Shown one piece after another: positions 3,001 through 6,000 of a DNA stretch of 42,265 nucleotides; position 1 is the first letter of the stretch; every line of letters begins with the position of its first letter. The position numbers are program-made. Origin of the DNA: Candidatus Zixiibacteriota bacterium (lineage in GTDB: Bacteria > Zixibacteria > MSB-5A5 > GN15 > JAAZOE01); assembly GCA_043819555.1 (NCBI GenBank), contig JBDREQ010000011.1, positions 1-42,265 on the forward strand, in the 5' to 3' direction.

Positions 3001-6000
3001 TTGGGAAATCTGGATGCCAAACGAGATTGGGGTTTTGCCGGCGATTATGTTAAAGCAATGTGGCTGATGCTTCAGCAGGATAAACCAAAAGATTATGTGA
3101 TCGCGACCGGTTCGACTCATTCGGTTAAGGAATTTGTGGTGGAAGCGTTTTCATCGGTTGATCTTGACTGGGAGAAATATGTTGTCAAAGATCCCCGTTT
3201 TATGCGTCCGGCCGAAGTCGATTTTCTCGTCGGCGATGCTTCCAAAGCCAAAAAAGATCTGGGCTGGGAAGCGGAAGTAGATTTTAAAGGTCTGGTCCAG
3301 ATGATGATCGACGCTGATTTGGAACGCCTGAAAGGGAAGAGCAATTAAGGCTTATATTACCGGTATTTGCGGGTTCGCGGGTTCCTGGCTCGCCGAAGAA
3401 CTATTGAATCATGGATATTATGTCCGAGGCGTGGCATTACCTGGAGAATCGGATATTAACTTGCGACATATCCCACTCAAAATTAAGATTGATAGATTCG
3501 ATATAACCGATCCCGAATCATGCAAAGATATTTTAAACCGTGTGAAACCCGATTATCTGTTTCATCTGGCGGCGATGTCTTCCGTCGGAAAGTCATTTAC
3601 ACAGGCAGAAAGGACTTTCAAAGTCAACGTTGATGGAACGATCAATATCTTCGATGCGGCTAAAAATAAATCATGGTTGAAAAAATTAATCTTCGTCAGT
3701 TCATCGGATGTTTACGGGTTAGTCAAACCGAGTGATTTACCGCTTAAATCTTCTCAGATTCCTAATCCAATGAATCCATACTCTCAAAGCAAAGTCGTCG
3801 GGGAATATTTGAGCAAAATTTATTTCGGTCAATTCGGAACGCCAATTGTTATTGTTCGAGCCTTTAACCATACCGGACCGAGGCAGAGGCTTGATTTTGC
3901 CATTCCCTCATTCAGCAGGAAAATCGCTAAGGCGGAAACTTCGCCGAAAAACGGAATAATTACGGTTGGGAATTTATTGGCCCGCCGTGATTTGAGCGAT
4001 GTACGTGATATCGTTCGGGGCTACCGGATGCTTGCCGAAAAGGGCAGGTCGGGAGAAATCTATCAATTATGCTCGGGTCGAGATTATCGAATTGGAGATT
4101 TGTTAAAAAAGCTGGTCGAGATGTCGGATAAGCCGATAAGGATTAAAAAGGACATGAAACTCTTCCGCAAGTCCGATTTACCGGTCCTGCGGGGGAGCTA
4201 CAATAAAGTAAAAAAAGAAATTGGCTGGAAACCCGAAATTCCGCTAAAAGCAACCATGGCAGATACTTTGGAATATTGGCGGAAAAAAATAGCCAGGTAA
4301 GGGAGTTTTTGTGAAGAATAAAATTCTGGATAAAATCAAAGATAAAAGCGCCCGAATTGGCATTATCGGTCTTGGCTATGTCGGTTTGCCGTTGGCGGTT
4401 GAGTTTGCCGAAAGCGGTTATAATGTCACCGGTATAGATATTTCAAAGAATAAAGTGAAATTGATTAGCGGTGGTCATTCTGATATTGACGACATTCCCG
4501 ATAACCGTGTGGCCCCGTTGATTAGATCCAAATTCCTGAAGGCCACGACTGATCAAAGCCATTTATCAAAAATAGACTGTGTTTTTATTTGCGTCCCGAC
4601 ACCATTATCAAAGACTAAGGACCCTGACATCAGTTATATCCTGGCGGCCTGTGAAGCAGTTGTCAAGTATCTGCATAAAGATATGCTGGTTGTTCTGGAA
4701 TCAACGACATATCCGGGAACAACCGATGAGGTTATCAAGCCAAGGCTTGAGGAAAGCGGTCTTAAAGCGGGACTTGATTTTTATCTGGCTTTTTCGCCGG
4801 AAAGAGTTGACCCCGGAAACGCGCATTATACAACCAAGAATACTCCCCGTGTGGTTGGAGGGATTACCGATAAATGCACTCAAGTCGCCAAAACATGCTA
4901 TGAGCAGGTTATTCCAAATATCTATCCGGTGTCATCGACCCGCGCCGCCGAGATGGTCAAGCTTCTCGAAAATACTTTTCGCTCGGTAAATATCGGTCTG
5001 GTAAACGAAGTCGCCCTGATGTGCCATCGCCTTAACATGGATGTTTGGGAAATAATCAATGCCGCCGCAACCAAACCTTTTGGCTTTATGCCGTTCTATC
5101 CAGGGCCGGGACTCGGCGGACATTGCATACCGATTGACCCGCATTATCTGTCTTGGAAACTAAAAACGCTCAATTATTTTGCCCGTTTTATTGAATTGGC
5201 GGGCGATATTAATTCGCATATGCCTGAATGGGTCGTCGAAAGAATAACTTCTCTTTTAAATGAACATAGTAAATCGGTTAAGGGCTCACAGATTCTGGTG
5301 CTTGGCGTAGCCTACAAGAAAAACATACAGGATATCCGCGAATCACCCGCCCTTGATGTTATTGAGCTTCTTGTTCGGCTGGGAGCAAAGCTGAGTTATA
5401 ATGATCCTTATGTCCCCGAATTAAATCAAGACTTTCATAAAATGAAATCAGTCAAGCTCACATTATCAGGATTGAAAAAGGCGGATTTGGTAGTTATTCT
5501 TACCGATCATAAAGATTATGACTATGGCTGGATTTGCGAGAACGCTAATTTGGTTTTTGATACCCGTAATGCCACCATAAATGTTACGAAAGGTAAAAAC
5601 AAGATTCACAAATTATAGTTTTTTATCGAACTCAATATTCGACAGGATAGGATTCGCCTACTATAATTTTCGATGTTGTGCAATGGCTTATGCCCCAAAA
5701 TGGTTGGTTTGTGCTGAATTTCCCCGTATCTCAGCATGAAGCAACGAAAAATAAACCGATGTTTTCATAAATAGTTGTAGCTATTAGTCGATAAATAGCG
5801 TATAATGAATAGTTAATGTTAATTTTGAGTTCGATCTTTATCGTAGTTTTGTTCTATAATACATCACACCGCTAAAGCTTAATCTCGAATTGATGGCGCA
5901 ATGATGCGCAACATGTCATTTATCTTGAAGTATCTGACTTCATTGGAATGCAGTTCGCTTCGGGATAAGCAAATACGGAGTGTAGTATGAATATCTACAT

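Follow-up and report, generated by a model that had tools for sequence, protein, structure and literature searches.

A leader in front of a single-RRM gene

What a long, conserved leader in front of a gene for a small RNA-binding protein is for, and what might read it, is the question raised by a locus on a 42,265-nt contig of a Candidatus Zixiibacteriota genome. This whole stretch was analysed and is called the window below; positions without a contig name refer to it, and all features of the cassette are on its + strand. We know of no cultured member of Zixibacteria. The gene (5987-6277) encodes a single-RRM RNA-binding protein (Rbp) of 96 aa with a short Gly/Arg tail, which scores 102.9 bits with NCBIfam NF058537 (Rbp_regulator) and so passes its cut-off of 100. 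It is preceded by a Shine-Dalgarno sequence, GGAG (5977..5980), whose columns are ≥90% conserved in an alignment of 90 rows. The gene looks monocistronic, with an NDP-sugar dehydrogenase gene on one side and a radical-SAM gene on the other. The whole cassette (5625..6371) comprises a promoter, the leader, the RRM gene, a 3' hairpin behind the stop codon (6295..6314) and a predicted intrinsic terminator (6327..6363). By eye, the 3' hairpin recurs in the window's own clade (clade A, see below) and was seen in many of 31 downstream regions. Further along the window, 7319-10252 encodes a TPR lipoprotein of 977 aa that contains a long, acidic insert of low complexity; the partial similarity of the protein to PorW/SprE falls below the cut-off.

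A TATAAT sequence at 5801..5806 is the putative -10 box, based on its conserved position among leaders: 63 of 89 have a TA[TC]A[ACT]T box whose end lies 172-185 nt ahead of the start codon. A consensus promoter scan made no call for the box in the window. Transcription would start near 5813. RNA-library contigs of relatives (four libraries) span leader and gene, and one of them continues into a -10-like box, although such contigs cannot show transcription or its start. A strong sigma-70-like site (11/12) also lies at 5639-5667, near the left edge of the cassette, with the conserved -10 box 150 nt further downstream; we saw no conservation of this site.

Distribution of the leader family

The leader is, as far as sequence can tell, a 5' untranslated region of ~175 nt common to the single-RRM rbp paralogues of most Zixibacteria. 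The first-pass annotation had reported two such genes with the leader in this genome. Both copies are present, the second at C10:28841-29006 (86% identity over the leader), but a third, diverged copy was found as well, at C73:29645-29460 (-), in front of a gene whose protein is 55% identical; the leader thus stands ahead of all three single-RRM genes of the genome. A tandem two-RRM gene at C9:84796-85245 (-), with similar genes in G007 and G022, is without the leader. The conservation across the order that had been claimed was also recovered: of 101 genomes of the order, 78 were matched in a DNA search with the leader and first codons (5780-6060), and part of the identity stems from cassette mobility. 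The leader alone matched 65 of 201 genomes of the phylum.

We collected 156 distinct RRM upstream regions, 89 of which resemble the window's clade (clade A); most of the others retain the same landmarks. A covariance model (R1) built from 90 rows detected the leader, in 1-7 copies each, in 105 of the 150 Zixibacteria genomes searched, a set that contains the training genomes; among 600 genomes from four other phyla, none gave a complete copy. Weak matches occurred in 1, 2, 1 and 0 of the 150 genomes of each of these phyla; all four lack the GCGC hairpin (P2), three being RRM genes matched at the ribosome-binding site (RBS) and start, and one a non-RRM gene. A pattern scan of metagenomes yielded at least 121 loci and, among the matches listed, 119 of 121 precede RRM-like ORFs, although the pattern itself included RRM-like first codons. 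Viral contigs gave 0 matches to the leader pattern. The same kind of scan was too loose for the genome collection, where a true match made up 1 of 120 loci among the matches listed, and was discarded.

As previously noted for this locus, Rfam holds no match: the best hit over 5400-6600 had an E value of 2.2, and eight further loci gave six sub-threshold matches in Rfam 15, none over a leader. The literature that we searched, with most subscription journals and the supplements of other motif surveys outside its scope, contained no description of the present RNA, and PMC12873609 does not mention rbp. Variants and look-alikes were also observed. In two paralogues of family f8 (L296 and L306), a possible GNRA-capped hairpin takes the place of P2, with the neighboring P1 and P3 hairpins kept. 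In two genomes from Gemmatimonadota samples (L446 and L447), the long region upstream of RRM genes is of another type; it is near-identical between the two, is predicted to fold over a long range and may represent a further family of rbp leaders.

Covariation of the leader structure

Three stems had been proposed for the leader. All three were confirmed, but helix 1 is a two-tier hairpin of ~75 nt, and a fourth helix enters the coding region. In the present model, the long, imperfect 5' hairpin P1 (5820..5893) consists of P1a (5820-5829 with 5884-5893; two-sided changes in 9/10 pairs) and P1b (5836-5852 with 5861-5877; 13/13 pairs), with a UUGU motif at its top (5849-5852) in which each column is conserved in 82-85 of 90 rows. 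A first register for P1a was dropped when variation favored the UUUGAG/CUCGAA register. P2 (5896..5909) follows, and P3 (5919..5969), a long covarying hairpin with two-sided changes in 11/11 core pairs, lies directly upstream of the RBS. P4 (5980..6000) pairs the RBS spacer with codons 3-5 and holds the start codon in its loop.

The main test used a plain MAFFT alignment of 90 rows that was not fitted to the structure. In this alignment, 81.3% of cells pair, compared with 74.9 after shuffling and 34-49% in slid controls, and two-sided changes occur in 44 of 53 pairs, compared with 33.3 after shuffling. A model-fitted alignment (A3), which leans to the model and is therefore secondary, gave 42 of 53 pairs. 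G-U cells outnumber A-C cells (657 vs 204). The fold is that of the mRNA strand. Because the structure came from the same sequences, we added an alignment-free swap test, in which the duplex energy of an arm with its own partner is compared with that for partners exchanged between leaders. Across 89 leaders, z was -10.9 for P1a, -5.6 for P1b, -10.5 for outer P3 and -5.7 for inner P3 (each 0 of 2000), figures that, like those for covariation, are not probabilities, as related sequences are not independent. Among leaders at <65% identity (n=26), the counts in the same order were 0, 6, 0 and 1 of 2000, and eight of nine control pairings were silent. The test was also applied out of sample to 37 of 118 metagenomic leaders, those with <75% identity to the training rows, all of which had been chosen only on P2 and the first codons. 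Here z was -4.4 for P1a, -4.3 for P1b, -7.3 for outer P3 and -4.4 for inner P3, with 8/8 controls silent.

Thermodynamic folding gave a weaker picture for single sequences. The window's leader folds modestly (z -1.29), and the mean over 89 leaders was -1.96, with 88 of 89 negative. RNAalifold predicted P2 alone on the 90-row alignment; the full set of four helices came out only when it was given 12 clade-A rows picked by hand. An earlier caveat, that two-sided changes cluster in the third helix, was reproduced in clade A taken alone (48 leaders: P1a 2/10, P1b 2/13, P2 0/5, outer P3 12/12). It vanishes with the divergent paralogues, since these show covariation in P1, and the accompanying view that helices 1 and 2 are supported by conservation only does not hold for helix 1. 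The swap tests, the 90-row covariation and the metagenomic leaders together support the original proposal of a new, structured cis-regulatory RNA, and do so more strongly than the earlier evidence. On comparative evidence, then, a covarying structure sits in the leader of an RNA-binding protein's own gene.

Other routes of control found little support. The only terminator in 5600-6450 lies behind the gene, with no terminator or attenuator within the leader. There is no conserved uORF in the leader (an SD-like site is present in just 3 of 90 rows); an open frame of 25-29 codons that ends at the start codon in the window was rejected as a candidate, its length varying between rows. No pairing between leader and 3' UTR was detected in four swap tests (n=48). 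The lack of these three features leaves translation or decay as the likely output of the leader.

Conserved elements at P2 and the start codon

P2, a near-invariant GCGC hairpin whose loop starts with AAU, is a candidate protein-binding site. Its sequence is constant while the other stems turn over; P1 and P3 vary freely in sequence yet retain pairing. This invariance is partly due to selection by a P2 filter, which 133 of the 156 upstream regions passed and which dropped 23. Among 13 of these 23 that were viewed, one has a displaced hairpin and four carry two-sided changes in P2, with the others degenerate or leaderless. The loop is asymmetric, with AAU fixed and the mirror positions variable. 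In the 3.35 Mb genome, the P2 pattern has four matches, three of them the three rbp leaders and the fourth in an apparent coding sequence. Being almost private to rbp leaders, it marks the rbp family rather than a wider regulon. That P2 and UUGU keep their sequence points to a protein as reader.

P4 is less firm than P1 and P3, judging from its variation. It has few two-sided cells in the 90-row alignment, and its swap counts were 14 of 2000 in training and 1 of 2000 out of sample. Codon choice in the paired segment is skewed. At codon 3, 86 of 89 genes use ATC, which elsewhere makes up 173 of 281 Ile codons; at codon 4, TAC is used in 76 of 87, against 62 of 94 elsewhere. The local energy of P4 is -5.97, against -5.24 ± 0.19 for synonymous recoding, with 0 of 200 recodings as good. 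The codon bias may nonetheless reflect ancestry or a general 5'-end bias.

Mobility of the cassette

Several observations indicate that the cassette has moved. In G007, a genome of the same genus, the genes that flank the cassette are 63 nt apart (747 nt in the window) and the cassette is absent, although this site alone does not polarise insertion versus deletion; G007 carries the other leader type elsewhere (E 7e-25). A leader with 88% identity occurs in another order, the neighbor genes of cassettes vary widely, and families are intermixed within clade A in a protein tree that is poorly resolved, with most forks open. In addition, an att-like repeat with a tmRNA 3' end precedes 19 of 85 clade-A genes, at a constant position, but 0 of 57 others. 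The repeat, roughly 90 nt long and bearing the tmRNA 3' end, has at least eight copies in the genome: four on C10 (294-369, 5487-5561, 7556-7625 and 11583-11654), where they split the contig into units of 2-6 kb with unrelated cargo, and others at C46:1876-1949, C23:13071-13145, C60:1854-1950 and C60:6378-6448. A possible decayed remnant lies in the window at 5665..5724 (E 0.17, a weak match from an HMM that was trained with it included); an independent HMM found no match there on the + strand.

The carrier resembles the ssrA-specific islands and cis-mobilizable elements of Dehalococcoides, in which, in the portion of that study considered here, direct repeats of the tmRNA 3' end bound tandem cargo units (PMC3146451). 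The likeness concerns the carrier of clade-A cassettes and not the RNA, and may explain how cassettes move. Unlike those islands, the units here measure 2-6 kb and no tyrosine integrase was found on their contigs; the five hits in the genome all lie on other contigs. Next to cassettes, a scan of 94 neighbors for integrases and transposases returned one transposase. In L197, a clade-A RRM gene that is shortened is immediately followed by a Mutator-family transposase (4731-5951). Several clade-A cassettes have behind them a convergent gene of ~520 aa for a B12-binding or radical-SAM protein (C10:29432-30994, -, and likewise in L181, L192, L004 and L016), and a larger module with this gene travels together in part.

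Such movement raises the possibility that no RNA structure is under selection and that the leaders are alike simply through recent duplication and transfer of the cassette. The empty site in G007, the 88% identity in another order, the tmRNA-att remnants, the varied neighbors and the mixed families of clade A are all what this would predict. It is nevertheless largely refuted, and in our judgment barely credible, given that old paralogue clades and independent metagenomic sequences both show covariation, and that G007 itself has the other leader type. Mobility on tmRNA-att elements explains part of the identity within clade A, not the covariation across old paralogues.

Relationship to known leaders of RRM genes

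Feedback has reportedly been proposed for Chlorobi-RRM, a motif likewise located 5' of RRM genes, as the Zixibacteria leader is in 3/3 of the genome's own copies. The present family is uncatalogued but of a known kind (Chlorobi-RRM, RF01697). In the parts of the survey used here, Chlorobi-RRM is also phylum-restricted, listed as probably cis-regulatory and named for its RRM genes (PMC2864571). The two differ in build, since the entry describes a short, 73-position model with a terminator label, its end being a terminator-like stem with a U-run, whereas the Zixibacteria leader has ~175 nt, four helices and no terminator. The RF01697 model (45-bit gathering threshold) had no match at E ≤1 in four Zixibacteria genomes (G000, G090, G049 and G047), in a search without a positive control above the cut-off, and none at E ≤10 over 5400-6600.

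A functional parallel comes from Bacteroides thetaiotaomicron, where rbpA, rbpB and rbpC are also single-RRM paralogues with long leaders. According to the sections of PMC13370968 consulted, rbp 5' UTRs there measure 122-155 nt, the proteins are cold-induced, the family exerts redundant auto- and cross-repression at 21°C, and the genome has a single csp gene. The same sections describe this feedback as in good part transcriptional and pose a thermosensor role of the 5' UTRs as an open question, and no conserved structure of the leaders appears in the parts describing them (PMC13370968). RbpB is stated to crosslink to its own mRNA (PMC11697453, in part). In 150 genomes of Bacteroides' phylum, R1 gave one weak match, at the RBS and start only.

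Inverse distribution of cold-shock genes

Among 150 Zixibacteria genomes, the number of cold-shock-domain (csp) genes is inverse to that of leader-bearing rbp copies. Three or more csp genes occur in 4 of 105 leader-bearing genomes, compared with 40 of 45 without the leader (median 1 vs 4). Taken over 19 families, the correlation of family means is -0.83, although families are kin, and the pattern may represent one or few evolutionary events. In family f5, for example, 13/13 genomes have leaders and csp was found in 0/13; family f2 is an exception, with no leader and 1-2 csp genes. The only csp gene of the genome studied here (C71:29320-29511, -) is located 1.9 kb from the tmRNA (31395-31752), and a small lysine/arginine-rich ORF lies between the two.

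Function of the leader

We lean, without great confidence, towards the leader as an element that controls translation or mRNA stability and is read by the Rbp family, that is, family feedback on cold-shock-like genes. It would probably set the output of Rbp proteins likely to act in cold stress. P1 and P3 would serve as a scaffold, and P1 would lie at the 5' end of the message, given the position of the -10-like box (its end 172-185 nt ahead of the start codon), and would probably stabilise the mRNA there. The AAU loop of P2 and UUGU of P1 would be recognised by a protein, for which the Rbp paralogues themselves are the likeliest candidates, and binding may change ribosome access at P4 or mRNA decay, such that the family jointly restricts its own output. 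By extension, Rbps may replace cold-shock RNA chaperones in lineages with few or no csp genes. The suggestion of autoregulation is drawn by analogy with the Bacteroides rbp 5' UTRs and from the near-invariant loop private to rbp genes; the partner could instead be Csp or another protein.

Temperature itself might be the signal, a possible if unlikely reading that builds on predicted folds. Clade A would then carry a cold-on RNA thermoswitch of the Staphylococcus aureus cspB/cspC type, a kinetic form included. In the cold, P1 would conceal an anti-RBS segment (5858..5871, part of an alternative fold predicted in clade A only); on warming, P1 would open, the anti-RBS would pair with the RBS and the 3' strand of P1a with that of P3, and translation would be turned off, possibly with a protein at UUGU as helper. 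The S. aureus switches, in the portion of PMC8034633 used here, similarly have a long 5' hairpin able to hide an anti-RBS and a UUGU-type U-rich motif (UUUGUUU) on top, a layout that matches P1. Like E. coli cspA, they control paralogous small RNA chaperones, although of another protein family (PMC8034633 and PMC6386945, both in part). The cspA thermosensor model (RF01766) produced matches below the cut-off only, and within this genome none outside the csp gene; it needs a cold-shock-domain gene downstream, whereas the downstream gene here is an RRM gene. For the window, the predicted fold pairs the anti-RBS with the RBS at 37-50°C and not at 10-25°C. Among 48 clade-A leaders, anti-RBS pairing of at least 3 bp is predicted in 7 at 10°C, 9 at 25°C, 16 at 37°C and 30 at 55°C. 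Of the cells of the alternative fold, 81.8% pair, but unlike in the S. aureus type, the fold is limited to one clade and shows no significant covariation: two-sided pairs number 8 of 23 against 6.6 after shuffling (132 of 500), within-clade swap z values are -0.9 and -1.9, nothing was seen out of sample, and just 2-4 of 41 other paralogue leaders form the anti-RBS pairing. Moreover, in an equilibrium model of every second leader (24 and 21 rows), the cost of opening the ribosome footprint drops with warming, from 15.1 to 8.6 kcal/mol between 5 and 37°C, and does so with or without P1, whose removal or shuffling shifts the cost by ~1 kcal/mol.

The leader could also be a constitutive mRNA architecture, in which 5' stabiliser hairpins and a tuned RBS give a fixed high output and no ligand is regulated. 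P1 sits at the putative 5' end and P1 and P3 are free to change sequence while retaining pairing, both of which suit this explanation, yet the fixity of P2 and UUGU among paralogues with ~50% leader identity is left unexplained, and we consider it distinctly improbable. Slighter still are the chances that, within an otherwise structured leader, P2 serves a repressor as DNA operator or is recognised by an unrelated regulator such as Csp, an sRNA or a small ligand. GCGC-N6-GCGC is an inverted repeat, the two-sided variants are symmetric as DNA too, and transcriptional feedback is known in Bacteroides (PMC13370968, in the parts cited). An operator fits poorly with the asymmetry of the loop, where only the AAU side is constant, or with a position ~85 nt downstream of the putative start, and no wider regulon is marked; for Csp as the regulator, family f5 retains the leader, and no csp gene was found in it.

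Feedback by the Rbp family is the reading we favor. A more comprehensive account, unlikely as a whole, is that Rbp replaced Csp in most Zixibacteria, with the leader as feedback site and, in clade A, as a thermoswitch convergent with that of staphylococcal csp genes, the unit spreading between families on tmRNA-att elements as a self-contained cold-adaptation cassette. The leader constitutes a well-supported RNA family suited to Rfam, although the kind of element is not new. The P2 loop, UUGU, P4 and the anti-RBS provide exact sites for the question of whether rbp 5' UTRs sense temperature, and the inverse csp pattern suggests that, within one phylum, RRM proteins took over from cold-shock proteins.
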